Positions 9,461 through 62,897 of a stretch of DNA of 64,000 bases are shown here, piece by piece. The stretch is from Terriglobia bacterium (lineage in GTDB: Bacteria > Acidobacteriota > Terriglobia > 20CM-2-55-15), in NCBI GenBank assembly GCA_036496425.1, contig DASXLG010000070.1, positions 6,087-70,086 of the forward strand. The letters are read 5' to 3'. The notes under the pieces were generated by a model. The model had not been told where the DNA came from, did not search any database, and saw only the letters and a list, made by a program, of their open reading frames with translations. Position 1 is the stretch's first letter, and each line of letters opens with the position of its first letter. The translations under genes and the position numbers were made by a program.

Positions 9461-9490
9461 AAGACGAATCCCCTCCTTGAAAAGGAGGGG
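9461..9490. repeat. Isolated CCCCTCCTTGAAAAGGAGGGG hairpin, the same stem-loop that terminates the R2 repeat family
   Basis: cgaatcccctccttgaaaaggaggggattacg sits in the 400-bp divergent intergenic region between the TonB receptor and the beta-propeller gene. An identical hairpin occurs at 62858-62880, and a CCCCGCC variant at 48247-48267. Confidence 0.6.
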
Positions 9491-18186: not shown

Positions 18187-18200
18187 TTCCCGTCTCCTGT

Positions 18201-20486: not shown

Positions 20487-20490
20487 TTCC

Positions 20491-22002: not shown

Positions 22003-22086
22003 TTTATAAACATTGCGAAACGATTGCACGCAGAAAGCCAGTGTGCCAGCGCGGCCGGGCGGTCCGCTGATCAAGCCGCAGCTGCG

Positions 22087-22470: not shown

Positions 22471-22502
22471 TGCTGCCGTCAGAATCGAGTATTTTCGCAA
22501 CA

Positions 22503-27675: not shown

Positions 27676-27807
27676 ACCGCCTCCAGCTCGCTGTCGTTTG
27701 CGACACATTTCCAAATGGATATACCACCTGCACCATAGTCCCGATCGTCCCTTGAATCCAATATTTTCGTTCTGTTCTCCGTCCATGCGCCGATTATGGC
27801 CGGAGGT

Positions 27808-35666: not shown

Positions 35667-38099
35667 ATGCGCTATGTGTGCGCGGTTTTGGCTTTCGCGG
35701 TCGCCATCCTGGCCTCGGGGTCGGCGGGCTCCGGTGGTTCCGGTAGTCTTCGAGCCGCGGCGCTGCAGGAAAAGACAGCGGTGACGCCATCTCCTCAGCA
35801 GGCACTCATCAATCAGTATTGCGTGACCTGTCACAACCAGCGCGCCAAGACCGCCAACGTCATGTTCGACACGATGGATGTGAACGACGTGTCGAAAAAT
35901 CCCCAGATCTGGGAACGCGCCGTCCGCAAGCTGCGCGGCGGGATGATGCCGCCACCGGGAGCGCGGCGTCCGGATCCGGGCGCCGCGCAGGGATTCGCAA
36001 CCTATCTCGAAAATGAACTCGATAAGGCGGCAGCTGCTCATCCGAATCCGGGACGCGTCGGCGTACACCGGATGAACCGCGATGAGTACGCGAATGCCGT
36101 CGAAGATCTGCTCGGCGTGCGGGTCGATGCCAGCGCCTTGCTCCCGAAGGATGACATCGCGGACGGCTTTGACAACATCGCCGACGTTCTCAAAGTTTCG
36201 CCGTCATTTCTCGATCAATACATTTCGGCCGCCCGCTTCGTGACCAATGAAGCCATCGGCAATCCCGCACCGAAGACGACCAGCGCCGTGTTTCGCGCTT
36301 CCCGCAGCACGGACCAGAGCGCTCATATCGACGGACTGCCGCTCGGCACCCGCGGCGGAATGCTGATCGACTATCTCTTCCCTGCCGACGGCGAATACAA
36401 GTTCAACATCAACGGCCTTGCCAGTGCCGGGTATGTCCGCGGCCTGGAGTGGGAACACACCGTCGTCATCACCATCGACGGCCACCGCGTCTGGGAAAAG
36501 AACGTCGGCGGCGAGGCCGACATCAAAGAGATCGATCAAAAACAGGCCGCCGCCGTGGCGGCGATTAACGGCCGGTTTCAGAACATTCTGATTCCCGTGA
36601 AGTCCGGACCACACAAGGTCGGGATAACCTTCATCGAACGTTCCTACGCCGAGCCGGACGAAACGCTCCGCTCATTTATCCCGGGAAAACTCGAAGATCG
36701 CATCGCGCGGATCTCGAATGTGGAAGTCCTTGGTCCGTACAACTCCGACGGAGTCACGGAGACGCCGAGCCACAAGCACGTTTTCATTTGCCATCCGGCC
36801 GGCGCCGCTTCCGAATCCGAGCAGACGGCCTGCGCAAAACAGATCCTCTCGGCGCTGGCGAAGCGCGCCTACCGCCGTCCCGTCACGGAGCGGGATCTGG
36901 TCGCGCCGATGGCATTCTACAAAACCGGTAAAGACGAAGGCGGCAGCTTCGACTCCGGCGTCAAGAGCGCCTTGACCGCGGTTCTGTCCAGCCCGAAGTT
37001 CCTGTACCGCGCCGAGACTTTCCCGGGAAACGTCGCAGCCGGATCGAACTATCGCATCAGTGATCTGGATCTGGCGGCGCGGATGTCGTTCTTCATCTGG
37101 AGCCGGTTGCCCGACGACGAACTGATCAATGCCGCGGCCAAGGGACAGCTGACCGATCCGAAAAATCCGCAGGCTCTGAATCAGGAAGTGCGGCGAATGC
37201 TGGCCGACCCGAAGTCGAAATCGCTGGTCACGAACTTTGCTTTCGAATGGCTGAAAGTCCGCAGCATCGACGATATCGATCCGGATGCCATCCAGTTTCC
37301 CAACTGGGACGACAGTCTGCGCGAAGCCTTCAAGCGCGAAATGGAACTGTTCGTCGGCAGCATCATTCAGGAAGACCGCAGCGTGGTGGATCTCCTCACG
37401 GCGAATTACACCTACCTTAATGAACGGCTGGCCCTGCACTACGGAATTCCGAACGTCCGTGGCGACCGCTTCCGCAGAGTCACGCTCGACGATCCGAACC
37501 GCTTCGGACTGTTCGGCAAAGGCAGCATTCTGATGGCGACGTCTTATCCGAACCGGACGGCTCCGGTTCTGCGCGGCGCTTTCGTTCTGGAAAACATCAT
37601 GGGAACGCCGCCCTCGCCGCCACCGCCGGACGTCGAAGGCTTCAAGGAAAACAAGGAAGGCGAAAAGGCGAAAACCGTGCGCGAGATCATGGAGAAGCAT
37701 CGCGCGAACCCGGTGTGCAATAACTGCCACGGCGTCATGGATCCGCTCGGCTTCTCGCTCGAGAATTTCGATGCGATCGGAGCCTGGCGATCGAAAGACG
37801 TTTTCGCGGACACGACTATCGACGCTTCCGGCAAACTGGTCGACGGAACGCCGGTCAATGGACCGGTGGATCTCCGCAATGCATTGCTGAAACATCCCGA
37901 ACAGTTCGTTCAGACACTCACCGAGAAGATGATGACGTTTGCCCTGGGACGCAGCGTGGAGTACTACGACATGCCGACCATACGCAAAATCGTCCGGGAC
38001 TCGGCGAAAGATAATTACAGGTTTTCTTCGATCGTGCTGGGCATCGTCAACAGCCCGGCGTTCCAGATGAGACGAGCGGAAAAGGTTACGAGTAATTAG
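35667..38099 (+). CDS. PSCyt/PSD multidomain di-heme family protein, module 3
   Basis: MRYVCAVLAFAVAILASGSAGS..., then YCVTCHNQRAKTANV. Family blocks include HPNPGRVGVHRMNRDEYANAVEDLL, LTANYTYLNERLALHYGIPN and FRRVTLDDPNRFGLFGKGSILMATSYPNRTAPVLRG. A C-terminal CNNCHGVMDPLGFSLENFD is present. A GGAG Shine-Dalgarno precedes it 11 nt after the MBL stop. Confidence 0.85.
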   Translation: MRYVCAVLAFAVAILASGSAGSGGSGSLRAAALQEKTAVTPSPQQALINQYCVTCHNQRAKTANVMFDTMDVNDVSKNPQIWERAVRKLRGGMMPPPGARRPDPGAAQGFATYLENELDKAAAAHPNPGRVGVHRMNRDEYANAVEDLLGVRVDASALLPKDDIADGFDNIADVLKVSPSFLDQYISAARFVTNEAIGNPAPKTTSAVFRASRSTDQSAHIDGLPLGTRGGMLIDYLFPADGEYKFNINGLASAGYVRGLEWEHTVVITIDGHRVWEKNVGGEADIKEIDQKQAAAVAAINGRFQNILIPVKSGPHKVGITFIERSYAEPDETLRSFIPGKLEDRIARISNVEVLGPYNSDGVTETPSHKHVFICHPAGAASESEQTACAKQILSALAKRAYRRPVTERDLVAPMAFYKTGKDEGGSFDSGVKSALTAVLSSPKFLYRAETFPGNVAAGSNYRISDLDLAARMSFFIWSRLPDDELINAAAKGQLTDPKNPQALNQEVRRMLADPKSKSLVTNFAFEWLKVRSIDDIDPDAIQFPNWDDSLREAFKREMELFVGSIIQEDRSVVDLLTANYTYLNERLALHYGIPNVRGDRFRRVTLDDPNRFGLFGKGSILMATSYPNRTAPVLRGAFVLENIMGTPPSPPPPDVEGFKENKEGEKAKTVREIMEKHRANPVCNNCHGVMDPLGFSLENFDAIGAWRSKDVFADTTIDASGKLVDGTPVNGPVDLRNALLKHPEQFVQTLTEKMMTFALGRSVEYYDMPTIRKIVRDSAKDNYRFSSIVLGIVNSPAFQMRRAEKVTSN

Positions 38100-38112
38100 T
38101 AAGGAGCAGACC

Positions 38113-39423
38113 ATGTTCATCACTAAGAAACATTTGTCACGCCGCACGTTCCTTCGCGGCGCAGGCGTCGCTGTTGGATTGCCGTTACTGGACGCAATGA
38201 TCCCGGCGGGCACAATGCTCGCTCAGACCGCGGCCAAAGCAACGCCGCACATGGGATTCATCTATTTCCCTCACGGCGCGATCATGGATAACTGGATGCC
38301 GGCGAAGGAGGGCGCCGACTTCGACCTGAAGCCCATCCTGAAACCGCTCGAACCTTTCAAGAAGCAATTGACCGTCATCAGCGGCCTGGCCAACAAGCAG
38401 GCGTACGGTCCCGTTCACGCTCTGTCGCCGGGAACATGGTTGAGTTGCGTCCGGCCGCGTGAAAGCCAGGATCCGTACGGCGGCGTGACCGTCGATCAGA
38501 TTGCGGCAAAACACATCGGCCAGGACACGCCAATGCCGTCGATCGAACTTGCCGTGGAAGGCGGCGGACTGGCCGGCGCGTGCGACCGGAACTTCGGCTG
38601 CAGTTATGCGGGAACGATCTCATTCCGCACGCCATCGACGCCGATGCCGATGGAATACAACCCGAGAAAGACATTCGAACGCCTGTTCGGGCAGGGCGAC
38701 ACCCCGCAGGAGCGCAAAGCTCTGGGCAAGCAATATGCCAGCATCCTCGACCTCATCAGCGAGGAAGCCGCCGATCTTCAATCGCACCTGGATCCCCAGG
38801 ACCGCGTGGCGGTCAGCGACTATCTGGAAAGCGTGCGCGAAGTGGAGCGGCGCGTCCAGAAAATGGACGAGCACGATCTGACCAGGCTCGACCTGCCGAA
38901 CGTTCCTCCCGGAACGCCCCCGCTCGACGACCGGCTCAACCTCATGTTCGACATGGTGGCTTTGGCCTATCAGGCGAACCTGACGCGCATCTTCTCGTTC
39001 ATGATGGCCGCCGAGGGCAGCAACATGACGTACAACCACATCGGCGTGCCCGATGCGTTCCATCCCGTATCGCATCACCAGAACAATCCGAAACGCATGG
39101 AAAGCTGTACGAAGATCCAGACCTATAACGCCGGGGTCGTTGCAAAATTCCTGGGGAAACTTCAAAAGATGCAGGACGGCGACGGCACCATGCTCGACCA
39201 TTCGATCATCCTGTTCGGCAGCAACATGAGCAACAGCAACGCTCACAATCACGATCCGTTACCGACAGCGCTCGTCAGCGGATGGAAGACGATCAAGGGT
39301 GGGCAGCATCTGAAATATCCGGAACACACGACGCTTGCGAACCTGCACCTGACGTTGCTCGAACGCGCCGGAATTGTGGAAAACGCTTTCGGAGACAGCA
39401 CCGGAAAGTTATCGGAGGTCTAA
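38113..39423 (+). CDS. DUF1501 family protein (Tat-exported), module 3
   Basis: MFITKKHLSRRTFLRGAGVAVGLPLLDAM, with an AAGGAG Shine-Dalgarno. Length is 436 aa. Confidence 0.85.
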   Translation: MFITKKHLSRRTFLRGAGVAVGLPLLDAMIPAGTMLAQTAAKATPHMGFIYFPHGAIMDNWMPAKEGADFDLKPILKPLEPFKKQLTVISGLANKQAYGPVHALSPGTWLSCVRPRESQDPYGGVTVDQIAAKHIGQDTPMPSIELAVEGGGLAGACDRNFGCSYAGTISFRTPSTPMPMEYNPRKTFERLFGQGDTPQERKALGKQYASILDLISEEAADLQSHLDPQDRVAVSDYLESVREVERRVQKMDEHDLTRLDLPNVPPGTPPLDDRLNLMFDMVALAYQANLTRIFSFMMAAEGSNMTYNHIGVPDAFHPVSHHQNNPKRMESCTKIQTYNAGVVAKFLGKLQKMQDGDGTMLDHSIILFGSNMSNSNAHNHDPLPTALVSGWKTIKGGQHLKYPEHTTLANLHLTLLERAGIVENAFGDSTGKLSEV

Positions 39424-40887
39424 ATGCCCACGATCATTCTTGCCATGCTGCTTGCAGCCGCCGGGCTGGTCGATGCCGTGAAATCCGGCGACCGGACGAC
39501 CGCCCTTTCACTGCTCCAGCAGAAAGTGAATGTCAACGCGCCCGAGGCGGACGGAACCACGGCCCTGCACTGGGCCGTTCAGAAAGACGACGCGGACCTC
39601 GTGGACCGGCTGATCAAAGCCGGCGCCAACGTCAACGCGAAAAACGACTACGGCTCGACGCCGATGTCGGAAGCCGCCATCAATGGCGACGTCGCGATCA
39701 TGGACAAACTGCTGAAGGCCGGCGCCAGCGCCGAATCGTCAAATGCCGACGGCCAGACAGCGTTGATGATCGTCGCGCGCACGAATAACGTCGAAGCAGC
39801 GCGGCTTCTGTTGAATCACGGCGCGAATGTCAACGCGGCAGAAAAGTTCCATGAACAAACGCCTCTGATGTGGGCGGCCGCCGAAGGCCAGGCCTCGATG
39901 ACCAAAGAACTCATCGCGCACGGCGCCGATGTCAATGCGCGCTCTCACGTCAATGACTGGGATCGCCAGGTCACTGCAGAAGCCCGCGCAATCGCTCGGC
40001 CGGCCGGCGGATTGACGGCGCTCCTGTACGCCGCGCGCCAGGGATGCACCGGATGCGCCAAAGCGCTGGCGGAAGGCGGCGCGGATTTGAATCTTGCCGA
40101 TCCGGAAGGCGTGTCTCCCCTGCTCCTCTCCATCCTTAACATGAACTTCGATGTCGCGGCCTATCTGATCCAGAAAGGCGCCAACGTCGACAAATGGGAT
40201 TGGTGGGGACAAAGTCCGGTCTACGCGGCTGTCGACGTGAATACGATTCCTCACGGCGGACGCCCGGACCGTCCTTCAGCCGACGAGACCACCAGCCTCC
40301 AGGTTCTGCAGATGCTGCTCGATAAAGGCGCGAACGCGAACCTTCAACTCAAGCTCTTGCCGCCTTATCGCAACCTTGGCGCCGATCGCGGAGTCGATGG
40401 AATGCTCACCATCGGCACAACGCCTCTGCTGCGGGCCGCCAAAGGCCTGGATGCGCCCGCGATCAAATTGTTGCTCGAACACGGCGCCAATCCGAACCTG
40501 CCCAATACGCGGAATTTCATTCCGATCGTGGCCGCTGCCGGAATCGGATCGAGCGATGCCGATACGCGCGGCTGGTTCAAAACCGACGACGTTCAGCAGC
40601 GGGCCATCGCTTCTCTGGACCTTCTGCTGAAAGCCGGAGGCGACATCAACGCCAAGGATACACAGGGCAAAACCCTGCTGCTGGGCGCCGCATTCTGGGG
40701 TTGGAGTGACGTCGTGAAATATCTCGCCGCTCATGGCGCCGACTTGAGTGCGAAAGATAATCGCGGGCACGATGCCGTCGACACAGCGCTCGGCAAAGCC
40801 GGCGGCAACAGCCGCGGCGGCCAACGCGTCGATGTGCATCAGGACACCGCGGACCTGCTCAAACAACTGATCGCGGCCAAACAATGA
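39424..40887 (+). CDS. Secreted ankyrin-repeat protein, module 3
   Basis: MPTIILAMLLAAAGLVDA. Ankyrin repeats include DGTTALHWAVQKDDADLVDRLIKAGANVNAKNDYGSTPMSEAAINGDVAIMDKLLKAGA.... The ATG immediately follows the DUF1501 TAA. Confidence 0.85.
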   Translation: MPTIILAMLLAAAGLVDAVKSGDRTTALSLLQQKVNVNAPEADGTTALHWAVQKDDADLVDRLIKAGANVNAKNDYGSTPMSEAAINGDVAIMDKLLKAGASAESSNADGQTALMIVARTNNVEAARLLLNHGANVNAAEKFHEQTPLMWAAAEGQASMTKELIAHGADVNARSHVNDWDRQVTAEARAIARPAGGLTALLYAARQGCTGCAKALAEGGADLNLADPEGVSPLLLSILNMNFDVAAYLIQKGANVDKWDWWGQSPVYAAVDVNTIPHGGRPDRPSADETTSLQVLQMLLDKGANANLQLKLLPPYRNLGADRGVDGMLTIGTTPLLRAAKGLDAPAIKLLLEHGANPNLPNTRNFIPIVAAAGIGSSDADTRGWFKTDDVQQRAIASLDLLLKAGGDINAKDTQGKTLLLGAAFWGWSDVVKYLAAHGADLSAKDNRGHDAVDTALGKAGGNSRGGQRVDVHQDTADLLKQLIAAKQ

Positions 40888-41831
40888 GAAAAAGAAAAGG
40901 AACACAAAAAGCACAAGAGACACAAGCAAGACGCATTATTCCTCTCTTGTGTTGCTTTTTGTGCTTCTTGTGTTCCTTTCCCGTCTTCGCCGCCAACGAC
41001 TGCGATCGGCCCTGCCTCAAGACCACCCTCGACCAGTATCTCAACGCCGCCATCAAGCATGACCCGGCGGGCGCTCCTCTTTTCGCCGGCTTCCGCCAGA
41101 CCGAAAACGCCATCGTGGTGCGCACCGGTACCGGCATCTGGAAATCGCTGACCGGCCTCGGCAAGGTTCAGCGCCGTTACTTCGATCCGGTGTCCGGACA
41201 GGCCGCCTATTACGGAATCATCGAAGAAGGTTCAACTGCCGATATCGCGACAGTCCGCCTCAAGGTGGAAGACAAGAAGATCACGGAAGCCGAATGGATT
41301 ATCAGCCGCAAAACCGATATCGGCCTGAACGGCACCGGCCCGAATCTTCTCGATCCCGGGAATCTAGCCGCCAATGCCCCTCCCGATAAACCCATGCCGC
41401 GCGACGCGAAGCTCTCGCGCGCAGCGCTGATGGCCATCGTGAACAGTTATTTCGACGGCATCACGACACACGACGGCTCCATCATCAATGCGTATCAAGG
41501 ATGCACCCGAATCGAAAACGGCGTTACGATGACCGGCCGCGGAAGCCGCGGCGGAGCAACGAGCGATTGCACCTCCGGCCTGGAAACCATCAACATTCTG
41601 AATGTTGCGGCACGCCGCTTCCCTATCGTCGACGAGGATGCCGGCGTCGTCCTGGCGATGGCTGTCTTCATCCGGAAACCCGGCACCACGACACGCCGGA
41701 ACGTTTTCTCGGAATGGTTCTACATCGATAAAGGGAAGATCCGGACGATTTACACTGCGATGTTCTATCCGCCCGCGGAGCTTCCGGTTCCCAACTGGCC
41801 GCCATACGACGGCAACTGGCCGGTGAAATAA
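40884..41831 (+). CDS. Secreted hypothetical protein whose signal peptide is supplied by a palindromic repeat
   Basis: MRKRKGTQKAQETQARRIIPLLCCFLCFLCSFPVFAAND... The ATGA overlaps the ankyrin stop. The mature part (CDRPCLKTTLDQYLNAAIKHDPAG...) has no family I recognise. Length is 315 aa. Confidence 0.55.
   Translation: MRKRKGTQKAQETQARRIIPLLCCFLCFLCSFPVFAANDCDRPCLKTTLDQYLNAAIKHDPAGAPLFAGFRQTENAIVVRTGTGIWKSLTGLGKVQRRYFDPVSGQAAYYGIIEEGSTADIATVRLKVEDKKITEAEWIISRKTDIGLNGTGPNLLDPGNLAANAPPDKPMPRDAKLSRAALMAIVNSYFDGITTHDGSIINAYQGCTRIENGVTMTGRGSRGGATSDCTSGLETINILNVAARRFPIVDEDAGVVLAMAVFIRKPGTTTRRNVFSEWFYIDKGKIRTIYTAMFYPPAELPVPNWPPYDGNWPVK
40899..40976. repeat. Palindromic repeat family 1, copy C
   Basis: Arm 1 is ggaacacaaaaagcacaagagacacaag. 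Arm 2 is ctcttgtgttgctttttgtgcttcttgtgttcc, an imperfect reverse complement. It encodes GTQKAQETQ...LLCCFLCFLCS of the downstream protein. Confidence 0.8.
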
Positions 41832-48078: not shown

Positions 48079-48270
48079 ACATTCCCCGCCTTTCCAAGGC
48101 GGGGAGGCTGCGCCATCAAGAGATAGTCCCGTTCCTTATCGGCGCAGACGGGGCGGTTTGTAACTTCCATCAACAAGTAAGGAGCGCTACGCGGTTCGTT
48201 GATAACCGCCCCGCCCGAGCGTTCTAACGTTTGATCTCTCGGGCACCCCGCCTTGAAAAGGCGGGGAATG
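48079..48270. repeat. R2 structured repeat, copy c, the most complete copy; it lies in the 5' leader of the PQQ-dehydrogenase gene
   Basis: acattccccgcctttccaaggcggggaggctgcgccatcaag...cggcgcagacggggcggtttgtaacttccatcaac...gttgataaccgccccgcc...caccccgccttgaaaaggcgggg. At least four hairpins are visible, and the core matches 12714-12810 and 62704-62800. Confidence 0.8.
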
Positions 48271-48277
48271 GTACAAC

Positions 48278-49933
48278 CTACTTCGATGCCGGAGCGCCTT
48301 TTGCGCCCATCAGGGATTGAAGCAAGGCGACCGTCTCCGGGAACGGTTCCGGAGCCGGGCCGCCGCGGGCGCCTCCGCGGACACCCTTCGCGAGATCGAG
48401 CGCCATTCTGCCGTCGGCATCCTTCGCCTGGAGATCGGCGCCGTGCTCGGCGAGAAACTTCACGAACGGCGTGAAGCCGTGCTCGGCCGCGCCGTGCAAA
48501 GCGGTTTCGCCCGGCACCGCAAACGCACTCGGCACCTGGCTGGAACGGCCGCCGCGGCCCGCACCGGCTGACGCGCGCTGAGCCGCGCTGTCCGTCGCCA
48601 CACGACGCGGTTCAGTGAGCATGTGGGCATTGACGTTGGCGCCGGCGTCGACGAGAAGTTTCATCGTCGCAAGCACGCCTTCGTTCGTCCGGTTCCGGCC
48701 GCGCGTGACGCGCGTTCCAAATTCAACACCGGCCGCAGCCATCAGCGGCGTGACGCCTTCTTTACTCGGCAGATCGACCAGCGCGCCGTGCTGGAGTAGA
48801 AGTTCGACAAACTTGGCATCTCCGGCCCGTGCCGCGCGCAACAACGGGGTCGCGCCCTGAGCCAGAATCGAGTCGCCGCCGCGATCCTGAGGTACATCGC
48901 GGTACGGCGGCCGGCGCTTGAGCTGAATATTCGGATTCGCGCCGGCTTCAAGCAACATCCGGCCGACATCGACGGCGGTGAGCTTGTCTTCGCTCGGAAT
49001 CACGGCCATCGCGCCGTTGCCCTTCATCGGAAGCGTGCTGACATCGGCGGCCATATAGACCGGCGAACGGCCGAAGAGATCCCACTTATCGAGGTCGGCG
49101 CCGCCCTTGATCATATACGCCGCAAACTCGAAATGAAGATTCAAGAGAGCCATGTTCATCGGCGTCACGCGATCGGGATCGTCGAGATCCGGATCGGCCT
49201 TCGCCGCGATCAAGGCTCGCGCACATTCGACGCAACCTTCGCGCGCTGCGTACAACAAAGGTGTAAAACCACCCTTGTTCATGTCCTTGGGGCGCGGCTC
49301 GGTGATGACCTTGCGTTCCCATTGGTGAACCACTCCGCGCGCATTCACGTCCGCACCATGTGACGCCAGCAGCTTGATCATCTCCGCCTGGCTCTGCGCC
49401 GCGGCCCACATGATCGCGGACTGTCCGCCCCACGTCTCTTTGGCATTAACGTCCGCTCCCGCATCCAGCAGCCGCTTAGCCGCGTCGACCTTTCCGGCGC
49501 GGGCGGCTTCCATCAACGGTGTTTCGCCGTCCGGGTTCTTTGTATTCGGATCGGCTCCGGCCTTCAACAACGCATCGATGACCGGCGTCGCACCGATAAT
49601 TGAAGCTTCGGTGATCGCCGAGGTGCCGAACTGATTCATCAATTTGACGTTGGCGCCGGCCTTGATCAGCGCGCGCACGAGGTCGAGGTCGTTATTCGCG
49701 GCCGCGTACATGATCGCCGTTGTGCCGTCGGGGCCAACCGTGTTCGGATCGGCCTTCGCGGCTAGCAACTTCAAGGCCGCCGGCCGATCGCCGGACTCGG
49801 CAGCGTCCAGAAGCGAAGGCTTCGCCGCGGTCGCGGCCCTTCCCACGACAAAGGAGACGGAACACAAGAAGCACAAAAAGCACAAGAGAGCCATTCTTGT
49901 GCCTCTTGTGTTCCTTCCCTGTTTCCTCTGCAT
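48278..49933 (-). CDS. Secreted ankyrin-repeat protein, module 4; the N-terminal signal is supplied by a palindromic repeat
   Basis: MQRKQGRNTRGTRMALLCFLCFLCSVSFVVGRAATAAKPS, then ankyrin repeats (DGTTAIMYAAANNDLDLVRALIKAGANVKLMNQFGTSAITEA...). A GGAGG Shine-Dalgarno sits 7 nt upstream inside the DUF1501 3' end. There is a 1-nt spacer between the DUF1501 stop and the ATG. Confidence 0.8.
   Translation of the reverse strand: MQRKQGRNTRGTRMALLCFLCFLCSVSFVVGRAATAAKPSLLDAAESGDRPAALKLLAAKADPNTVGPDGTTAIMYAAANNDLDLVRALIKAGANVKLMNQFGTSAITEASIIGATPVIDALLKAGADPNTKNPDGETPLMEAARAGKVDAAKRLLDAGADVNAKETWGGQSAIMWAAAQSQAEMIKLLASHGADVNARGVVHQWERKVITEPRPKDMNKGGFTPLLYAAREGCVECARALIAAKADPDLDDPDRVTPMNMALLNLHFEFAAYMIKGGADLDKWDLFGRSPVYMAADVSTLPMKGNGAMAVIPSEDKLTAVDVGRMLLEAGANPNIQLKRRPPYRDVPQDRGGDSILAQGATPLLRAARAGDAKFVELLLQHGALVDLPSKEGVTPLMAAAGVEFGTRVTRGRNRTNEGVLATMKLLVDAGANVNAHMLTEPRRVATDSAAQRASAGAGRGGRSSQVPSAFAVPGETALHGAAEHGFTPFVKFLAEHGADLQAKDADGRMALDLAKGVRGGARGGPAPEPFPETVALLQSLMGAKGAPASK
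49859..49914. repeat. Palindromic repeat family 1, copy D
   Basis: Arm 1 is ggaacacaagaagcacaaaaagcacaagaga. Arm 2 is tcttgtgcctcttgtgttcc, a shortened reverse complement. It encodes RNTRGTR-MA-LLCFLCFLCS on the minus strand. Confidence 0.8.
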
Positions 49934-49934
49934 C

Positions 49935-51221
49935 TTAGACCTCCGAAAGAACCTTATCGCTGTCGCCGATCGACTTCACCGGGATATCGTTGCGGTCGAA
50001 GATCGTCAGCAACAGGTTGGCGTGCCGCGAATCCTGCGGATACTTCAGATGCTGGCCGCCTTTGATCTTGCCGTGCGCATGGCCGAGCAGAGCCGAGGGC
50101 AGCGGATCGTTGTTGTGGCGGTCGCTGTTGCTCATATTGCTGCCGAACAGGATCGTCGAGTGATCGAGAATAGTGCCGTCGCCTTCCTGTGCCGCCGCGA
50201 TGTGCTTGATAAATCCGGCAAACACTTCGGTGTGGTACTTCTGGATCTGGACCAGCTTATCCATTTTTTGCGGATTGTTTCCGTGATGCGACAGAGGATG
50301 GAAACCCTCGGCGATGCCGAGGTTCGTGTAGGTGCGCATGCTGGCTTCGCGATCCATCGACATCGTGATGATGCGGGTAATGTCGGCCTGGAACGCGAGC
50401 GACATCAGATCGAACATCAGCTTGAAATGTTCGGTGATGTCGTTGGGCGTGCCGACCGGTGCATCGGGAATGTTCAGTGCCGCGGTGTCCTGTTTCTCCG
50501 CCATCTGGACGCGGCGCTCGATCTCGCGAACCGAATCAAGGTAGTCGCCCACCACAACGCGGTCACGCGCGCCGAGGCCGGCCTGCAATCGTTTGGCTTG
50601 CGCCTGCACACGGTCCAGAATGCTGTCGGTTTCGTGCAGAATTTCCGCGCGTTCTTTATCGGTGTCGCCCTGGCCGAATAGTTTCTGGAACACCGCGCGG
50701 GGATTGCCTTCCTGCGGCAGCGACTGCGTCGGCGTCCGCCAGGACAATCGGGCGCCTCCTTGAGCGGTCGTGAGTTCCAGCGACGGCAGCCGCGTATCCT
50801 GACCGACGTAGCGCACCAGCATCTGATCGGCGGTAACGCCGGCATCCTTACCGGCAACGCCCATATCCCAAGGCTTCACACAGCTTAACCACGTCTGCTC
50901 GATGTAGGCGTGGGGCTCCGGCGTTTCTCCCTGTTTGTTGCGCAAACCCGACACGATGGTCAGGTGCTGTCGATACGGCGCCAACGGCTCGAGAATCGGC
51001 GACATCTCGTAGGCCGTGCCGGTCTCCTTCGGCGACCAGTGATCCATGATTGCGCCGTGGGGAAATCCGATAAACGCGAACCGTTTCGGCGTTGAACCGG
51101 CGGCCGTGGCTGCCCACGCAGTGGCGGCAGGACTCATCGCATCCAGGAGCGGCAGCCCGATCGTGGCTCCGATGCCCTTCAATACCGTGCGTCTCGAAAT
51201 ATGCTTCTTGTCGATAAACAT
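49935..51221 (-). CDS. DUF1501 family protein (Tat-exported), module 4
   Basis: MFIDKKHISRRTVLKGIGATIGLPLLDAM, with the family blocks FIGFPHG and HS.ILFGSNMSNSDRHNNDPLP. Length is 428 aa. Confidence 0.85.
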   Translation of the reverse strand: MFIDKKHISRRTVLKGIGATIGLPLLDAMSPAATAWAATAAGSTPKRFAFIGFPHGAIMDHWSPKETGTAYEMSPILEPLAPYRQHLTIVSGLRNKQGETPEPHAYIEQTWLSCVKPWDMGVAGKDAGVTADQMLVRYVGQDTRLPSLELTTAQGGARLSWRTPTQSLPQEGNPRAVFQKLFGQGDTDKERAEILHETDSILDRVQAQAKRLQAGLGARDRVVVGDYLDSVREIERRVQMAEKQDTAALNIPDAPVGTPNDITEHFKLMFDLMSLAFQADITRIITMSMDREASMRTYTNLGIAEGFHPLSHHGNNPQKMDKLVQIQKYHTEVFAGFIKHIAAAQEGDGTILDHSTILFGSNMSNSDRHNNDPLPSALLGHAHGKIKGGQHLKYPQDSRHANLLLTIFDRNDIPVKSIGDSDKVLSEV

Positions 51222-51247
51222 GACGTATCTCCCCTATCGAAGATTGC

Positions 51248-53692
51248 TTATTTGCTCGCTACCTTACTCGCAACTGCCGAGGTCTGAGGCACGCGGCGCA
51301 TTCTGAACTGGTCGCTCCGGACGATCGCCTGAACGATCGTCGAGAATTTGTAGTTATCTTTGGACGCGTCGCGGACAATCCGCCGGACGGTCGGCATGTC
51401 GTAGTACTGGACGGTGCGCCCGCTTGCATACATCAACAAGCGTTCGGTAAACGTCTGCACAAACTGGTCGGGCCGCTTCAACAGCGCATTGCGCAGATCG
51501 TCGGGCCCTTTTAGCGGTGTACCGTCGGGCAACTGACCCGCGGAATCAATCACAGTTCCCGCATAACGATCGCGATCCCGCCACATGCCGGTCGCGTCGA
51601 AGTTTTCGAGCGCAAAGCCGAGCGGATCCATGATTGCATGACAGGATGAACAGGCCGCGCTCGACCGGTGCTTCGCCATCATCTCGCGGACGGTCAGCGC
51701 CTTCGTGGTGCCGATATCTTTTTCATCGAGCGTGGGGACGTTGGGCGGCGGGTTTGCAGGCGGCACACCTTCGATGTACTGAAGGATGAACTTGCCGCGC
51801 AAGACCGGCGAGGTTCGATTCGGATAAGCAGCCGCCATCAGCACGGCGCCTTTACCGAGCAGGCCCCAGCGCACGGAATCCTTCAATTCGACGCGCTGAA
51901 AACGATCGCCTTTGATGTCGGTAATCCCGTAGTGGAGTGCAAGATGCTCGTTCACGAAGGTGTGGCTTGCCTTCAACAAATCAACGACGCTGCGATCTTC
52001 CCTGAAGATGCTGTCGGAAAACAGTGTCAGTTCGGTCTTGAAATCCTGACGCGGATCGGCCCGGCCGGAGGCATATGGAAAGACATTCTGGTCCGGAACG
52101 ATCTCGTCCAGACGCTTCATCTCGAGCCATTGTTGTACAAAATTGCTGGCCAGCGTCTCGGAACGCGGATCGGCCAGCATCCGTTTGACCTGCTTGTCGA
52201 GCGTGGCCGGATCGCTGAGTTTGTTCTTCACCGCAAGGTCCAGCAGTTCGTCATCGGGAATCGTATTCCAAAGGAAGAACGATAGCTTCGACGCGAGTTC
52301 GAGATCGTCAACCTTATAAGTCTCACCCGCCCGCACGGCTGCGGGTATGCGTTCCGCGCGATACAGGAAGAAGGGACTCGCAAGAACGCCGGTAATTGCG
52401 GTCCGGATACCGTTCTCGAAGTTGCCACCCTTTACGCCGTCCTGGTAATACTGAAGAATCTCAGTCACATCTTCATCGGTAACCGGCCGCCGGTATGCGC
52501 GCTTCGCGAGAGATGCAATGATCTGTCTGGCGCAGGCCGCCTGGACGTCCGGCTTGGCGTCATTCGCCGGATGGCAGATGAAGATGCGGTCGCGGCTGGG
52601 AGTCGCTCCAACGCCTTTGGCGTTGTACGGCCCAAGCAGTTGGAACGAGTTCACGCGGTACATCCGATCCTGCCCGCCGCCGGGTACGAACATCTGCAAC
52701 CGGTCGTCGGACTCGGCAAACGTCTTCCGTTTGAATGCCACGCCGATCTTGTGCGGCCCCGCAGGCGCGGTGAATCGGATATTCTTCAGGCGTGCATTGA
52801 CGCGGTCGAGCGCTCCGCTCTGCACCTGATCGTAGGCCTTCATGTCTTCTTCGCCGCCGATCACCGTCTGGTAAACCTGCTTGTTGTCGAGCGTGACCAC
52901 CAGCGGATTCTCGTACTCCATGCCGTTGCCCCAGATATGGGTAGCCATGTCCGCAATGTTGATCACGTATTCGCCGTCGGAGGGCAGATCCACATTTGCC
53001 AGAATGCCGCCGCGCGTACCGAGCGGCAGCCCCGCCACGTGCGTGTATTGCGTGCCGGAGGTTGCGCGGAACGTCCAGCCCGAAGGCCTTGCGTCCGGCC
53101 GCCCCATCGCTTCCACCGCTACGGAGCGCGCTGCGCTGACGTACTGTTCGATGAACGATGGAGAGACCTGCAATGCGGTCGCAATGTTGTCGAAGCCTTC
53201 GGCGGTGTCATCCTGCGGCAGGAGTGCGTTACCGTCGACATCGACAGCCAGCAGATCCCGTACGGCATTGGCGTATTCCTTGCGGTTGAGGCGGTGCAGC
53301 ACGATCTGATCGGGAATATGCATCTGACCTTCGGCATGGTCGAGAGAAGTCTCGAGCCATCCCACCAGCGAATCGACGGCCGCGGCGTCCGGCTGCTTCG
53401 AGCCCGGCGGAGGCATGACGCGGCCACGCAGCTTGCGTACAGCTTTCTCGAACAGTTCCGGATGCTGAGTAACACTCGCCGCCGTAATCCCTTCGAAGCT
53501 GACGCCGCCCGTCTTCGCGCGGTCGTTATGGCAACCGGCGCAGTACGTTTGGATGGTCGCGAGTTGCGCGTCGCCGGCCGCAGCTTGAGCCGCGGATTGC
53601 GCGGGCGAGGCAGTGAACACGCCGGCCGCGGACGCGATGAGAATTCCGGCCAGCGCAATGGCAACCGTCGGTGCGATTCGATTCTTTGTCAT
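51248..53692 (-). CDS. PSCyt/PSD multidomain di-heme family protein, module 4
   Basis: MTKNRIAPTVAIALAGILIASAAGVFTASPAQSAAQA, then ...YCAGCHNDRAKTGGV. Family blocks include HRLNRKEYANAVRDLL, LKASHTFVNEHLALHYGI and FQRVELKDSVRWGLLGKGAVLMAAAYPNRTSPVLRG. A C-terminal CSSCHAIMDPLGFALENFD is present. Confidence 0.85.
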   Translation of the reverse strand: MTKNRIAPTVAIALAGILIASAAGVFTASPAQSAAQAAAGDAQLATIQTYCAGCHNDRAKTGGVSFEGITAASVTQHPELFEKAVRKLRGRVMPPPGSKQPDAAAVDSLVGWLETSLDHAEGQMHIPDQIVLHRLNRKEYANAVRDLLAVDVDGNALLPQDDTAEGFDNIATALQVSPSFIEQYVSAARSVAVEAMGRPDARPSGWTFRATSGTQYTHVAGLPLGTRGGILANVDLPSDGEYVINIADMATHIWGNGMEYENPLVVTLDNKQVYQTVIGGEEDMKAYDQVQSGALDRVNARLKNIRFTAPAGPHKIGVAFKRKTFAESDDRLQMFVPGGGQDRMYRVNSFQLLGPYNAKGVGATPSRDRIFICHPANDAKPDVQAACARQIIASLAKRAYRRPVTDEDVTEILQYYQDGVKGGNFENGIRTAITGVLASPFFLYRAERIPAAVRAGETYKVDDLELASKLSFFLWNTIPDDELLDLAVKNKLSDPATLDKQVKRMLADPRSETLASNFVQQWLEMKRLDEIVPDQNVFPYASGRADPRQDFKTELTLFSDSIFREDRSVVDLLKASHTFVNEHLALHYGITDIKGDRFQRVELKDSVRWGLLGKGAVLMAAAYPNRTSPVLRGKFILQYIEGVPPANPPPNVPTLDEKDIGTTKALTVREMMAKHRSSAACSSCHAIMDPLGFALENFDATGMWRDRDRYAGTVIDSAGQLPDGTPLKGPDDLRNALLKRPDQFVQTFTERLLMYASGRTVQYYDMPTVRRIVRDASKDNYKFSTIVQAIVRSDQFRMRRVPQTSAVASKVASK

Positions 53693-53699
53693 ATTAAGG

Positions 53700-54632
53700 T
53701 TAGGCATCGGGTGACAAATAAGCCCACAGACTCTCGAACGCCCGGCGAACGAATTCATCGGGGTTCCCCATCTGAGCATCAAATTCCTTCGTTGGCTTCG
53801 CCGCCACGGCTTCGCCTGGGCCGCGCCCACGATTCAACAGCTGACTGAGGCGGCCGTATATCGTGCTGTACATCTCGGCCTGCTTCTTGAGGTCTTCGAG
53901 GCTCAGCACGGGACCGCGGGCAGGAACGATTTTGGTGTCGGCATTAGCCAGGGTTTGCAGGCGTTCGATGCCGCCCACGATGCCGCCGATCCATCCGCCG
54001 GTCCAATAATCGATCTCCGGCCAGCCCTCGCCTGTCGCCACATCCCCTATTGCCAACACATTCTGCTTCGGGAAATAAACGTACATGTCGCCGTCGGTGT
54101 GCGCCGCGTCGGGAACGTAGCCATAGCGGACGCCGGAATCGAGGCTGCCGGTCGTATAGAAAGTCTTGTTTGGCTGCGCCACCTTCGGGAACTTCTTGAA
54201 CTGCCGCCCGTTCCACGGCCAGGTGATGTTCTGCGTCAGCCAGAGCCGCGTGTTCTCGTGGGCAATGATCGTGGCGCCGGCCTTGCCGAGCCGCTCATTC
54301 GAGCCGGTCTGCTCAGGGTGCCAGTGCGTATTAAATAAGGTGTGGATTTTGCCGGCGCCGGGCAGCGCGGCCACGGCTTTCATGATCGCATCCGAACCGG
54401 CCGTGGAGCCGCCGTCGACAAGCAGAACGCCATCGGCTCCCGTCTGGGCGATGACATTGGCTTGTCCGGGGATCCGCAAAACGAACAAATCGTCGCTTAA
54501 TTTCAGCGGTCCCGGGTCTTGAGCAAGCCCGCGCAGGACCGGTGCGCCCAGAACGATTCCGGCCGCACCTCCGATCGCTGCTTTCAGTATTTCCCGGCGT
54601 GAATGATGACAGCTGACCTTCTCCTGATCCAT
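53700..54632 (-). CDS. Tat-exported metallo-beta-lactamase-fold protein, module 4
   Basis: MDQEKVSCHHSRREILKAAIGGAAGIVLGAPVLRGLA is a Tat signal. Motifs include NTHWHPEQTGSN and HTDGDMYVYFPKQNVLAIGD. It is a paralog of 34742..35656. Its stop is 7 nt before the PSCyt start. Confidence 0.75.
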   Translation of the reverse strand: MDQEKVSCHHSRREILKAAIGGAAGIVLGAPVLRGLAQDPGPLKLSDDLFVLRIPGQANVIAQTGADGVLLVDGGSTAGSDAIMKAVAALPGAGKIHTLFNTHWHPEQTGSNERLGKAGATIIAHENTRLWLTQNITWPWNGRQFKKFPKVAQPNKTFYTTGSLDSGVRYGYVPDAAHTDGDMYVYFPKQNVLAIGDVATGEGWPEIDYWTGGWIGGIVGGIERLQTLANADTKIVPARGPVLSLEDLKKQAEMYSTIYGRLSQLLNRGRGPGEAVAAKPTKEFDAQMGNPDEFVRRAFESLWAYLSPDA

Positions 54633-57177: not shown

Positions 57178-57249
57178 TGAACATGGTGTGTGAGCGACCC
57201 CCTGCCGCCGCTTCGCGGCGGCAGGGGGTCGCTCACACACCATGTTTAT
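57178..57249. terminator. Perfect 32-bp-stem palindrome between convergent genes, likely a bidirectional terminator
   Basis: aacatggtgtgtgagcgaccccctgccgccgc-ttcg-gcggcggcagggggtcgctcacacaccatgtt. It starts 16 nt after the stop of the plus-strand polyferredoxin and overlaps the stop of the minus-strand hypothetical. Confidence 0.6.
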
Positions 57250-57833: not shown

Positions 57834-58884
57834 TCGGCTTGGCGAGCATTGTCAGGCGCCCTTTGATGCCCGGGGATACCAGCACTTCGTTTTTCGAACT
57901 GACGATCACGGCATCCACGCCGGGCGTCCGTTGGACCAGCGCCATGCCGGCCTCGGGGCCGAGAATGAAAACACCCTTCGATAACCCGTCGGCCATTGTC
58001 GCGCTGTTGGCAACAATCGTCACGCTGCGGCAGCCCATCGCGGGCTCACCTGTCGCCGGATCGATGATGTGATGATACCGCCGGCCGTTCCGGACAAATG
58101 ACCGCGCATAATCGCCGGACGTGCTGAACGTGCTGTCGGACAAGTCGATCTGCGCGAAGATCTGATTCTGCGGGCCGCGCGGGTCCTGGATGCCGAGCCG
58201 CCACATGTGGTTGTCTTCAAGACCCGCAGCATACATGTCGCCGCCGAACTGCACGATGAAGTCGTGGAATCCCCGGCGTTTGAGAATGTCGCTGGCGCGA
58301 TCGACGGCATACCCTTTTCCGATTCCGCCGAGGTTCACGGTCATTCCCTTCCCCTCGATGAACGCCGTTCCGGCGGCATCGTCAACCACGACCTTCCGGT
58401 AGTCGATGAGTTTTCGCTTGCGCGCGATTTCTGCAGGAGCCGGAATCGTATCGTCCTTGTTCTGGTAATCGAATTTCCAGAGGTCCGACAAGGCGCCCCA
58501 CGTGATATCGAATTTTCCCTCTGTCAACTCGCTGAGTTGATGCGCCGACCGCAGCACCTCGCGGAGCTCGGGCGCCACGCGGACGGGGTGCAACCCGGCG
58601 GCCGCGTTCAATTGTTCGACGTCGCTGGTTTTCAGCCAGTTGCTCAGCAGTCCTTCGAGCCGGTTCATTTCGTTGAACACGGCTTCGAAGGCGGCATTGG
58701 CGCCGGCTTCATCCGCGGTCCAGGCCTGAAGGTGAAGCTCTGTTCCCATCGAGGCGAAGGTTCGCTCGACGAGGTGCGCGGCGGGTTTTGGAGGTGATGG
58801 TGTCTTCGTGCAGGCGGCAAGAAGAAACAGGAAAGCCAGCCGCAGATTACGCGGATGACGCAGATGGGGCGCCACCAGGTTCAT
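57820..58884 (-). CDS. apbE: FAD:protein FMN transferase (ApbE family), lipoprotein
   Basis: MNLVAPHLRHPRNLRLAFLFLLAACTKTP carries a lipobox. ApbE blocks include ...RTFASMGTELHLQAW...FDITWGALSDLWKF...VNLGGIGKGYAVDRASDILK...IVQFGGDMYAAG...STSGDY.R.F..NG..YHHIIDP.TG.P. Confidence 0.8.
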   Translation of the reverse strand: MNLVAPHLRHPRNLRLAFLFLLAACTKTPSPPKPAAHLVERTFASMGTELHLQAWTADEAGANAAFEAVFNEMNRLEGLLSNWLKTSDVEQLNAAAGLHPVRVAPELREVLRSAHQLSELTEGKFDITWGALSDLWKFDYQNKDDTIPAPAEIARKRKLIDYRKVVVDDAAGTAFIEGKGMTVNLGGIGKGYAVDRASDILKRRGFHDFIVQFGGDMYAAGLEDNHMWRLGIQDPRGPQNQIFAQIDLSDSTFSTSGDYARSFVRNGRRYHHIIDPATGEPAMGCRSVTIVANSATMADGLSKGVFILGPEAGMALVQRTPGVDAVIVSSKNEVLVSPGIKGRLTMLAKPTDAP

Positions 58885-58914
58885 TTAATGCGCCCCATCT
58901 GCGTCATCCGCGTA
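58848..58914. promoter_or_regulatory. Perfect 27-bp-stem palindrome that encloses the apbE start codon in its loop
   Basis: attacgcggatgacgcagatggggcgc-caccaggttcatttaat-gcgccccatctgcgtcatccgcgtaat. The minus-strand ATG (58882-58884) lies inside the 13-nt loop. The structure sits 15-80 nt downstream of the DUF1501 stop at 58929. Confidence 0.5.
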
Positions 58915-58928
58915 ATATGCGGCTGGCC

Positions 58929-60257
58929 TTACAAACTCAGGCGGCCGGTGCTGTGTCCGATCTGTTCCAGTTCAACGTTCGCCAGGTCCGCCACGGCAAG
59001 CAGCAGATTTGCGGTAGGCTCTTTGTTTTCGACGGCAATATGCCGATTCCCTTTCAGCCGGCCGTTCGCTCCGCCGATCAGGGCAGCCGGAGGCGTGTTG
59101 CGATCATGCGCGTTGCCGTTGCTCATACCGCTGCCGAAGTAAATGACGGCGCGATCGAGCAGGTTGCCGTCGCCATCCGGAGTCGCTTGCAGCTTAGCGA
59201 TGAACTCCGCGAGTTTCTGCGCGTGATAGGTGGTGATTCTCGCGTACTTCTCGATGTTTTCCGGCTTGTCTCCGTGATGCGAGACCGGATGATGCGGCTC
59301 GGGAATGCCGATATGAGCGTAACTGCGGCTGCTTCCCTCATGGCCGACCATAAAGGTAAAGACGCGCGAAATGTCGCCTTGAAACGCGAGGCGCATCAGG
59401 TCATAGGTCACCGTCATGTGCTCGTCGAAGGTGTCCGGAATTCCGAGCGGCGCCGCTGCGCCCTCTGGAACCGCGGCGGCGCGAGCTTCCATGCGATCGA
59501 GTTGCTGTTCGACGTCGCGGATATTGGACAGGTACTGCTCCAGGATGGCATTGTCCGCCGGCCCGAGTTTCTTCCGCATGGCGGCGGTTTCGCTGGCGAT
59601 CGAATCCAGCATGCTCAGTTTCTCTTTCAGGTTCGCCAGCCGCTTGCGCGAAGAACCGGCTTCGCCGAACATACGCTCGAACGTGACGCGCGGATTGATA
59701 TCCATCGGCAGCGGGCTCGTATCGTCGCGCCAGGAGACGGCGTTGAAGAAGACGCAGGGATAGCCATCGCAGGCGCCGGCCGACGTGCCCATGTCTTCCG
59801 TGCCGACCTGCAGCGAGCGCATCGGCGTATCGTCGGCAATTCCATCGGCAATGAATTGATCGACGGTCTTCTTGGACCGGATCACGGTGTACTCGGCCTG
59901 CTTCGTCAGCGGACCGACTCCGTTCAACCATGCCGCGCTGGCTCCCATGTGGACGCCGCCATTCTCGGGATTGCCGTCGGGCGCCTTCATCTTGCTCACA
60001 GTGACCACATAGTTCCGATAGGGCTCGAGCGGCTTCATGATCGGCTTGAACTCGAAGTCGCTGCCGACCTTGTCCGGATGCCACAACTGCGGATAGATCC
60101 CGTTCGGCACGTAAACCGCGCCAAAGCGGAACGGCCGCACTCTGGACTGAGCGGATAGCGCAGGTGTCATGGCGTCAAGAAAAGGCAGAGCGACCGCTGT
60201 CCCGAAGGCGCCGCGAAGGAAGGTACGGCGGTCGATATGTTTCTTTGTGATGATCAT
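58929..60257 (-). CDS. DUF1501 family protein (Tat-exported), module 5
   Basis: MIITKKHIDRRTFLRGAFGTAVALPFLDAM, with the family blocks AVYVPNG and HS.VIYFGSGMSNGNAHDRNTPP. An upstream in-frame extension to 60311 is possible. Confidence 0.8.
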   Translation of the reverse strand: MIITKKHIDRRTFLRGAFGTAVALPFLDAMTPALSAQSRVRPFRFGAVYVPNGIYPQLWHPDKVGSDFEFKPIMKPLEPYRNYVVTVSKMKAPDGNPENGGVHMGASAAWLNGVGPLTKQAEYTVIRSKKTVDQFIADGIADDTPMRSLQVGTEDMGTSAGACDGYPCVFFNAVSWRDDTSPLPMDINPRVTFERMFGEAGSSRKRLANLKEKLSMLDSIASETAAMRKKLGPADNAILEQYLSNIRDVEQQLDRMEARAAAVPEGAAAPLGIPDTFDEHMTVTYDLMRLAFQGDISRVFTFMVGHEGSSRSYAHIGIPEPHHPVSHHGDKPENIEKYARITTYHAQKLAEFIAKLQATPDGDGNLLDRAVIYFGSGMSNGNAHDRNTPPAALIGGANGRLKGNRHIAVENKEPTANLLLAVADLANVELEQIGHSTGRLSL

Positions 60258-60294
60258 AGGGATGGCTCCTGTTTCCAACTGGACTCTATTGGAT

Positions 60295-62691: not shown

Positions 62692-62703
62692 TCGTCGTGA
62701 GCG

Positions 62704-62880
62704 ACATTCCCCGCCTTTCCAAGGCGGGGTGGCTGCGCCATCAGTAAATATCCCCAGTCCTTGATCGGCGCAGACGGGGCGGTTGGTAACTTCCGACAAA
62801 ATAAGGTGCGCTTCGCGGCAATTGTCAGGTGGCTTCGCGACATTACTAACCACCCCTACCCCTCCTTGAAAAGGAGGGGA
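62704..62880. repeat. R2 structured repeat, copy d, in the 5' leader of the module-5 PSCyt gene
   Basis: acattccccgcctttccaaggcggggtggctgcgccatcagtaaa...cggcgcagacggggcggttggtaacttcc...ccctacccctccttgaaaaggagggga. It shares its core with copies b and c, and its terminal hairpin is identical to the one at 9468-9488. Confidence 0.8.
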
Positions 62881-62897
62881 ATGCTGCTCCCGCTTTC

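Follow-up and report, generated by a model that had tools for sequence, protein, structure and literature searches.

What is the multi-hairpin repeat that recurs between genes in this piece of a soil bacterium's genome, and does it act as RNA or as DNA? The question is raised by a 64-kb stretch of DNA, analysed at its full length and referred to here as the window, whose proteins have their named homologues in Terriglobia (Acidobacteriota) and which is 99.99–100% identical to two JGI soil-metagenome contigs. A first-pass annotation, made from the letters alone, described the repeat family (R2) and left it between two readings: a structured leader RNA, riboswitch-like or attenuator, ahead of the genes that follow two of the copies, or a small MITE-like mobile element.

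R2 copies and the anatomy of the unit

The 25-nt end of R2, CATTCCCCGCCTTTCCAAGGCGGGG, occurs without mismatch on the forward strand at 12715, 48080 and 62705, and on the reverse strand at 48246–48270 (one mismatch) and 62859–62883 (three mismatches); shuffled sequences gave no matches. It is confirmed that three copies possess a common core of ~97 nt. Two of the three are full elements of 179–191 nt. An internal block, GGCTGCGCCA-N25-CGGCGCAGACGGGGCGGTT, is exact at 12741 and 62731; in the 48-kb copy its loop is shorter by one base, and the block ending CGGCGCAGACGGGGCGGTT is common to all three. Hairpins of the form CCCCKCCTT-NNN-AAGGMGGGG number six in the window, where 0.01 would be expected, a count that includes the one additional, solitary hairpin at 9470–9490. 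This last had been reported correctly as a lone hairpin of the terminal type; it could represent a remnant, or a hairpin in its own right. A repeat finder places inverted arms of 47 nt, 79% complementary, at 48080–48126 and 48224–48270 (I16). The 48-kb copy folds far more stably than its shuffles both as RNA (z = -9.0 and -9.3 for the two strands) and as DNA (z = -9.6).

On one strand the order of the unit is ANT, hp1, T, hp2 and tail (GGGGYGGTT). In the first hairpin, hp1, a 3-nt loop separates the pyrimidine arm CCCCKCCTT from the purine arm AAGGMGGGG; hp2 is a variable hairpin inside the linker and is sometimes absent. A scan for the general unit pattern returned exactly five units in the window. 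The full elements (48080–48270 and 62705–62883) each comprise two inward-facing units whose tails are paired with each other, and the copy at 12715–12815 is one unit with a short closing partner. The longer copies had been said to extend into a further, terminal hairpin: the hairpin is indeed present, but it is the first hairpin inverted and not a separate one, and the long copies are therefore inverted dimers of one unit. In terms of construction, two inward-facing units yield the 180–190-nt palindromic element and one unit the 12.7-kb copy. The loops, earlier taken to be conserved, are not: hp1 loops and hp2 sequences vary freely across the family. The features are as follows.

48080–48270, unstranded: full R2 element, 191 nt, an inverted dimer between an ankyrin gene (stop 48278–48280, reverse strand) and the start of the PQQ dehydrogenase gene (47989)
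48084–48158, forward: left unit of the 48-kb element; mirror match 9/9
48084–48104, forward: hp1 of the 48-kb left unit, CCCCGCCTT/TCC/AAGGCGGGG
48105–48149, forward: linker A and hp2 of the 48-kb left unit
48150–48158, forward: mirror tail of the 48-kb left unit, GGGGCGGTT
48204–48266, reverse: right unit of the 48-kb element; hp1 48246–48266, linker T and hp2 48213–48245
48204–48212, reverse: tail of the 48-kb right unit, GGGGCGGTT (AACCGCCCC on the forward strand), pairing with the left tail as the central stem
62705–62883, unstranded: full R2 element, 179 nt, inserted just past the ancestral ATG of the PSCyt/PSD gene
62709–62784, forward: left unit of the 62.7-kb element, G variant; hp1 62709–62729, linker and hp2 62730–62775
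62776–62784, forward: tail of the 62.7-kb left unit, GGGGCGGTT
62848–62879, reverse: right unit of the 62.7-kb element, T variant, without hp2; second loop TA, 2 nt
62859–62879, reverse: hp1 of the 62.7-kb right unit, CCCCTCCTT/TTC/AAGGAGGGG
62848–62856, reverse: tail of the 62.7-kb right unit, GGGGTGGTT (AACCACCCC on the forward strand)
12715–12815, forward: single unit; hp1 12719–12739, linker and hp2 12740–12785, tail 12786–12794
12808–12815: closing partner of the 12.7-kb unit, AACCACCC
9470–9490, unstranded: solitary hp1-type hairpin, CCCCTCCTT-GAA-AAGGAGGGG; tail absent on both sides

Repeats of other kinds are present in the same window. A tandem array at 13131–13425 (80-nt unit, 3.7 copies, 93% matches, with ~20-nt sub-repeats such as GAGATTCATTCTCCGAAAAC) shares its intergenic region with the 12.7-kb R2 unit. 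A second repeat family, rich in CACAAGAAGCACAAAAAGCACAAGA, lies at 2093–2137, 20387–20492, 40874–40994 and 49843–49890, often as close inverted pairs between genes (D13, I15, I17, I20, I22, I23); a palindrome of similar type occupies an orthologous intergenic spot in locus L123, and a different palindrome is found there in L167. Two long inverted repeats bear no relation to R2. The one at 57180–57246 has perfect 32-nt arms and a 3-nt spacer; the one at 58832–58930 has 41-nt arms, 95% complementary, and a 17-nt spacer (I21 and I14).

The mirror tail and intrastrand triplex repeats

The tail is complementary to nothing inside its own unit; it is the reverse, or mirror, of the hp1 purine arm. All five units in the window have a mirror tail that matches at 9/9 positions, A to T being allowed: opposite an A of the purine arm, the tail carries either A or T. 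On a single strand, R2 accordingly has a pyrimidine arm, the purine arm that pairs with it and a second purine block in mirror order to the first. To judge by the sequence, this order is the design of an intramolecular purine-motif DNA triplex. When the strand becomes single-stranded, during replication, transcription or repair, the tail would fold back antiparallel onto the hp1 purine arm, and the folded unit would be a purine-motif triplex of G*G.C and A*A.T or T*A.T triads, with one C*C.G in the window's variant. That the window sequence itself adopts such a triplex is what we infer. The freedom to place A or T in the tail is allowed by the purine motif and not by the pyrimidine (RNA-type) motif of the complementary strand or of RNA, for which reason we read R2 as a structure of DNA; purine-motif triplexes have been reported not to form in RNA (PMC4666352).

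The mirror rule can be followed in 46 loci that were fetched solely by the DUF559 protein they encode, so that neither hairpin nor tail was used in their selection. These contained 40 hairpin-strand instances with a perfect mirror tail within 75 nt; a direct copy was present in only six, and shuffling the order within the arms gives an expectation of 1.1. The rule is obeyed by 13 different arm sequences; examples of arm and tail are GCGGGGGAGG with GGAGGGGGCG, GAGGAAAAGG with GGAAAAGGTG, ACGGGGGAGG with GGAGGGGGCA and GGGAGAGG with GGAGAGGG. Within the window's own family the tails of partner units, which the search pattern leaves unconstrained, match their own hp1 in 55 of 55 full elements (37 G/C with G, 18 T/A with A), a covariation that could partly reflect whole-unit inheritance since this family has only two hp1 haplotypes (G and T). 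The match between tail and hp1 is kept despite a C.A mismatch in the tail–tail stem, as between 62776–62784 and 62848–62856. Strict mirror covariation across many variants is in-genome evidence for selection on triplex-compatible geometry itself.

Each window unit counts nine triads, within the ITxF criterion of 6–15 triads and at most one mismatch (PMC4666352). In the T-variant unit at 62848–62879 all triads are canonical; in the G-variant units eight are canonical and one is C*C.G. The T-variant unit also has the dimensions of the canonical class II intrastrand triplex motif as defined in PMC4666352, with loops of 3 and 2 nt that lie inside the ITxF limit of 1–6 nt. The remaining four units have a second loop of 33–46 nt, which is beyond that limit and beyond the sizes studied so far, and its closed hairpin brings the loop ends together. 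Because the 1–6 nt rule is an operational limit of the search tool, we file the window units as a variant of the class.

Known members of this class are the BoxC repeats of E. coli and other bacteria (Bachellier, 1990s; Hoyne and Maher 2000; Holder et al. 2015, PMC4666352), which have also been described under the names PIT and TM_ECO. The TM_ECO consensus is CCCTCNCCC-N3-6-GGGNGAGGG-N3-GGGNGAGGG (PMC4666352), and we observed it beside ycjD for comparison. CD and NMR have shown that TM_ECO/BoxC folds into a stable intrastrand triplex (Holder et al. 2015, PMC4666352). Like R2, these repeats present a C-rich arm, a loop, a G-rich arm, a loop and a mirror G-rich arm on one strand (class II, C-G-G with T-A-T triads); they have 9-nt stems, are multi-copy and mostly intergenic, are found alone or in inverted, 'palindromic' pairs, vary patchily among close relatives and lie at sites prone to rearrangement (PMC4666352). 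R2 differs from BoxC in sequence (CCCCKCCTT as opposed to CCCTCNCCC; the window arms are CCCCGCCTT and CCCCTCCTT, outside the TM_ECO/BoxC consensus in the strict sense), in its second loop (a 33–46-nt hairpin in four of five units as opposed to 3 nt), in a G variant whose C.G inversion is matched by the tail C, in dimers that carry extra internal modules, and in its host, a Terriglobia (Acidobacteriota) soil bacterium. [quoted passage not shown]

Insertion, spread and competing readings

Both full copies start 8–15 nt past the stop codons of ankyrin genes. At 48 kb the element is bordered on one side by the ankyrin gene that closes a PSD-HXXSHH-Ank cluster and on the other by the PQQ dehydrogenase gene; at 62.7 kb its neighbours are a different ankyrin gene and a PSCyt/PSD gene. 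The 12.7-kb copy stands ~230 nt 3′ of the stop of a forward-strand ORF (11399–12484) and is upstream of no gene. Genes of the PSCyt/PSD (DUF1592 etc.), HXXSHH (DUF1501-like) and ankyrin-repeat types form several paralogous clusters in the window (16861–27786, 35667–40887, 48278–53830 and 58929–63992), with 60–75% DNA identity among one another (D1–D14).

The history of the 62.7-kb copy can be read from the closest PSCyt/PSD orthologues, at loci L228, L230 and L229 (93%, 86% and 85% amino acid identity). In all three the ankyrin stop overlaps the PSCyt start as ATGA. At the window junction the same sequence, ...CAATGAGAAAG, is followed by ~210 nt absent from the relatives and then by the signal-peptide codons (alignment A3). 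Since three orthologous loci lack the ~210 nt, the 62.7-kb copy was gained in the window's lineage, inside a translationally coupled junction: orthologous Ank-PSCyt sites are polymorphic for presence of the element. Two features describe the result.

62684–62897, reverse: insert, the R2 element with short flanks, absent from three orthologous loci; boundaries approximate
60295–62901, reverse: 868-codon ORF from the ancestral ATG (62901–62899, overlapping the ankyrin stop) through the insert into PSCyt/PSD

The insert is a multiple of three and free of stops (70 codons in frame), and the 868-codon ORF consequently runs through it; the alternative to the ancestral ATG at 62901 is a restart of translation at TTG 62691, for a protein of 798 aa. 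For the 48-kb copy, five loci with PQQ-dehydrogenase orthologues showed no synteny in the corresponding empty-site comparison. The effects of R2 on its neighbours are probably passive, by way of stable transcript hairpins, local genome instability and, at 62.7 kb, disruption of the translationally coupled junction.

R2-type units reach far beyond this genome. A scan of the 25-nt R2 end against one genome per species found 22 loci in unrelated phyla (CPR groups, Bacteroidota, Proteobacteria, Nitrospinae, Binatia), most of them with an R2-type unit, and it is from these loci that the unit was recognised. Viral contigs of IMG/VR hold such a unit in 33 stretches, some contigs having several. The G variant is abundant in soil metagenomes, with at least 120 stretches, at least 149 units and at least 121 different linkers. 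Among the 149 units listed, the head ANT reads ATT in 75, ACT in 29, AGT in 22 and AAT in 12, and hp1 is a perfect 9-bp stem; hp2 closes as a hairpin in 81 of the 120 distinct linkers listed, against 1.3% of shuffles, by means of 24 different closing stems. Units are arranged singly, in tandem, back-to-back or as inward-facing dimers, and full elements (n = 34) span 105–237 nt from hairpin to hairpin. The distribution is patchy, with five units in the 64-kb window as against 0–1 in ~117 kb of related Terriglobia loci; R2 copies spread in the patchy manner of REP/BIME or MITE elements. A literature search with the exact R2 sequence gave no match.

An all-against-all comparison of the fetched loci for empty sites found that orthologous intergenic spots hold different palindromes in different genomes. 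In two related phage contigs, one intergenic position holds either two tandem triplex-type units (L056, 2364–2527) or a different set of four GC hairpins (L038, 1599–1719); the gene that follows in L056 has the last unit's purine arm in place of its Shine-Dalgarno sequence. The interiors of many R2-type elements in loci L061–L180 (e.g., L067, L087, L150 and L170) contain recurring modules with GCGAAGC or CGCGAAGCG, a sequence known as an unusually stable DNA mini-hairpin. The elements are frequently nested, or surrounded by additional inverted layers such as GAGGTGGACATT...AATGTCCACCTC.

The placement of R2 is ordinary intergenic, with no 5′-leader bias. Two copies do lie upstream of minus-strand genes, as the first-pass annotation stressed, but the 12.7-kb copy does not, and 35 metagenome sites with two callable neighbours divide into 20 co-directional, nine convergent and six divergent (rough gene calls). 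These observations bear directly on the proposal that R2 is a structured 5′ leader RNA (riboswitch or attenuator) controlling the PQQ dehydrogenase and PSCyt genes downstream. Besides the two upstream copies, very stable RNA folds speak for it, as does a weak, sub-threshold match to the Moco riboswitch (12.2 bits against a 36-bit cut-off, E = 3.3). Yet no Rfam family matched at gathering score anywhere in the window, and at the element only chance-level matches (E > 3) were returned; the Moco riboswitch, at 12 bits in the Rfam comparison taken to E ≤ 10 on the element, was set aside as chance. The element is a near-palindrome and so has no RNA strand specificity, folding equally well on both strands. 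The 62.7-kb copy was inserted recently into a junction that works without R2 in relatives, R2-type units adjoin unrelated genes in many phyla and in phages, and nine of the 35 sites are between convergent genes. The mirror-tail rule, moreover, is the strongest conserved constraint and is not of Watson-Crick type, and RNA pairing does not explain it. R2 matches no curated RNA family at threshold, nor is it found upstream of homologous genes with a strand-specific structure; the leader-RNA claim is left unsupported, and we regard it as very improbable. A role as an intergenic transcript hairpin, maintained as an operon-end terminator or as a REP/BIME-like stabiliser of mRNA 3′ ends, fares somewhat better and is still unlikely. 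The stems are GC-rich and very stable, the full copies begin 8–15 nt after ankyrin stops, and the ankyrin gene at 48 kb closes its cluster; but the hairpins lack a following U-tract, the 62.7-kb element separated two genes that are translationally coupled in relatives, PIT/BoxC had no promoter or terminator activity in earlier work (summarised in PMC4666352), and the mirror tail is left unexplained.

The MITE-like reading is close, in that a small non-autonomous mobile element fits. Inverted ends (the 47-nt arms, 79% complementary), a length under ~300 bp (179 and 191 nt in the window, 105–237 nt among full elements), many copies in related soil metagenomes and the insertion at 62.7 kb all agree with it, as they would with a classical MITE, derived by deletion from a DDE-transposase insertion sequence whose terminal inverted repeats it retains. 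With the long-hairpin bacterial MITEs (Correia, ERIC, etc.) R2 shares its size, its inverted ends, insertion between genes or in frame, and co-transcription with its neighbours. What does not agree is the lack of target-site duplication: the 34 full elements show no consistent flanking direct repeat (the best is at least 4 nt in only four of 34) and no defined cut site, and the flanks at 62.7 kb have only a weak 7-of-12 resemblance, ATGAGAAAGGCC-like, on both sides. We found no insertion sequence or transposase with R2 ends; the DUF559 cassettes resemble R2 in unit architecture and encode no transposase. The sole transposase seen, of the IS110 family, lies in L129 (2650–4431; DEDD_Tnp_IS110 and Transposase_20) between two inward-facing R2-type units, and appears to have inserted into the middle of a dimer, which recalls the targeting of REP-like palindromes by IS110/IS1111 elements. 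Unlike such MITEs, R2 is modular, being assembled from an autonomous sub-unit that occurs across phyla and also stands single, in tandem or back-to-back; the design persists across phyla although the sequences differ, in better agreement with a structural rule than with end-binding by a transposase. We therefore doubt descent from an insertion sequence, and refine the MITE-like reading to that of an inserted, selfish-looking palindromic DNA repeat. Overall it is likely that R2 is a DNA-level repeat of intrastrand-triplex-type units gained by insertion, and not an RNA regulator.

Some further candidates were rejected. The reading of hp1 as a Shine-Dalgarno/anti-Shine-Dalgarno translational switch does not serve as a general explanation: the T variant is CCTCCTT/AAGGAGG and lies 5–8 nt before ATG in some phage copies, but the window's G variant (GGCGG) is not Shine-Dalgarno-like and many other arms obey the same design. 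DGR, attC, CRISPR and tRNA-like readings were dropped as no matching feature was present.

DUF559 genes between R2-type units

DUF559 (PF04480) is a Vsr-like PD-(D/E)XK nuclease. In loci selected by the unit pattern, every DUF559 gene that was met lies between two inward-facing units (four of four: L013, L022, L032 and L073), and among the 46 loci selected by protein most of the closer homologues are likewise so placed. An example is L206, with CCTCCCCC-TTT-GGGGGAGG-T-GGCCCGGAGGGCC-GGAGGGGG ahead of the DUF559 gene and the inverse beyond it. As ~20 of the 46 are one syntenic locus, these amount to roughly ten independent cases. At that syntenic locus (L185, L192–L214; ~20 viral or prophage contigs) the flanking genes are 80–88% identical and the DUF559 gene only 65–75%; it looks as if the cassette there is exchanged or faster evolving.

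The association extends to E. coli: the 3′ end of ycjD, a DUF559 gene, falls within a degenerate unit, with a full BoxC 170 nt downstream. Loci L227 (E. coli K-12, NC_000913 1351039–1351840) and L232 give more detail: behind ycjD come a duplicate of part of its 3′ end and then a canonical BoxC. Of 5426 complete E. coli genomes, 3346 carry the ycjD segment, the others having the eefRABCD operon at that place; in the fabI–sapF interval of O157:H7, the eef efflux operon stands instead of ycjD and homology breaks ~35 nt from the BoxC position. Soil DUF559 proteins, including one from an Acidoferrales MAG, have C-terminal peptides (QPPLAPPWKGGE) that are translated units, and the DNA of these genes has decayed units on both sides. 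The 64-kb window has no DUF559 gene, and ~0.5 Mb of G-variant contigs contained none flanked by G-variant units; a chimeric-protein query for such genes recovered only T-variant-flanked ones, including that of the Acidoferrales MAG. A search for literature on DUF559 and repeats, or on ycjD and BoxC, found no paper that links the two.

The arrangement recalls REPtrons, in which a RAYT tyrosine transposase gene lies between inverted REPs (PMC3733652). REP/BIME sequences share with R2 short GC-rich palindromic units and head-to-head intergenic dimers, and REPtrons share a small gene, here DUF559, between two inverted units, together with presumed recognition of single-stranded folded DNA. R2 is nonetheless no REP as defined in PMC3733652 (a 20–40-nt imperfect palindrome with a GTAG or CGTC tag): it has the head ANT in place of the tag, a perfect 9-bp stem and a third, mirror segment. 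The gene in the cassettes also differs, being a PD-(D/E)XK Vsr-like nuclease and not an IS200/IS605 HUH transposase.

Flanking of DUF559 genes by units across phyla suggests a DUF559-driven, REPtron-like origin of the units. The most likely driver would be the Vsr-like endonuclease acting in trans, on the folded unit by analogy with REPtrons, and R2 dimers would be gene-less derivatives of DUF559 cassettes, or homing targets or landing sites. Two other explanations deserve mention: DUF559 proteins may simply be mismatch-repair (Vsr-like) enzymes, the characterised member being a mismatch-repair-type nuclease (PMC12907096), and the association could reflect shared insertion-tolerant sites. We put forward as a tentative possibility, on the REPtron analogy, that triplex-type units are the cis-acting ends of a widespread selfish DUF559-endonuclease element, with R2 dimers as its non-autonomous derivatives or homing targets. 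Were this true, DUF559 would supply the mobility gene that earlier work on BoxC, PIT and TM elements could not find (R2-type units flank DUF559 genes, whereas Holder et al. reported no mobility gene near TM_ECO; PMC4666352), and the purine-motif DNA triplex would gain a defined biological role as a recognition structure.

For annotation, R2-type elements are to be masked as repeats and kept out of lists of candidate riboswitches. A further consequence is that false or extended ORFs arise from them, as in the 70-codon in-frame insert at the PSCyt/PSD start and, elsewhere, in DUF559 ORFs that run into units. The intrastrand-triplex class itself was already known; what R2 adds is a hairpin-containing second loop, a new sequence and a new phylum, and with it intrastrand-triplex repeats are extended to Acidobacteria, CPR bacteria, Bacteroidota and phage contigs. 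The recurrent order of unit, DUF559 gene and inverted unit makes an old question testable: what makes and moves BoxC/PIT repeats.
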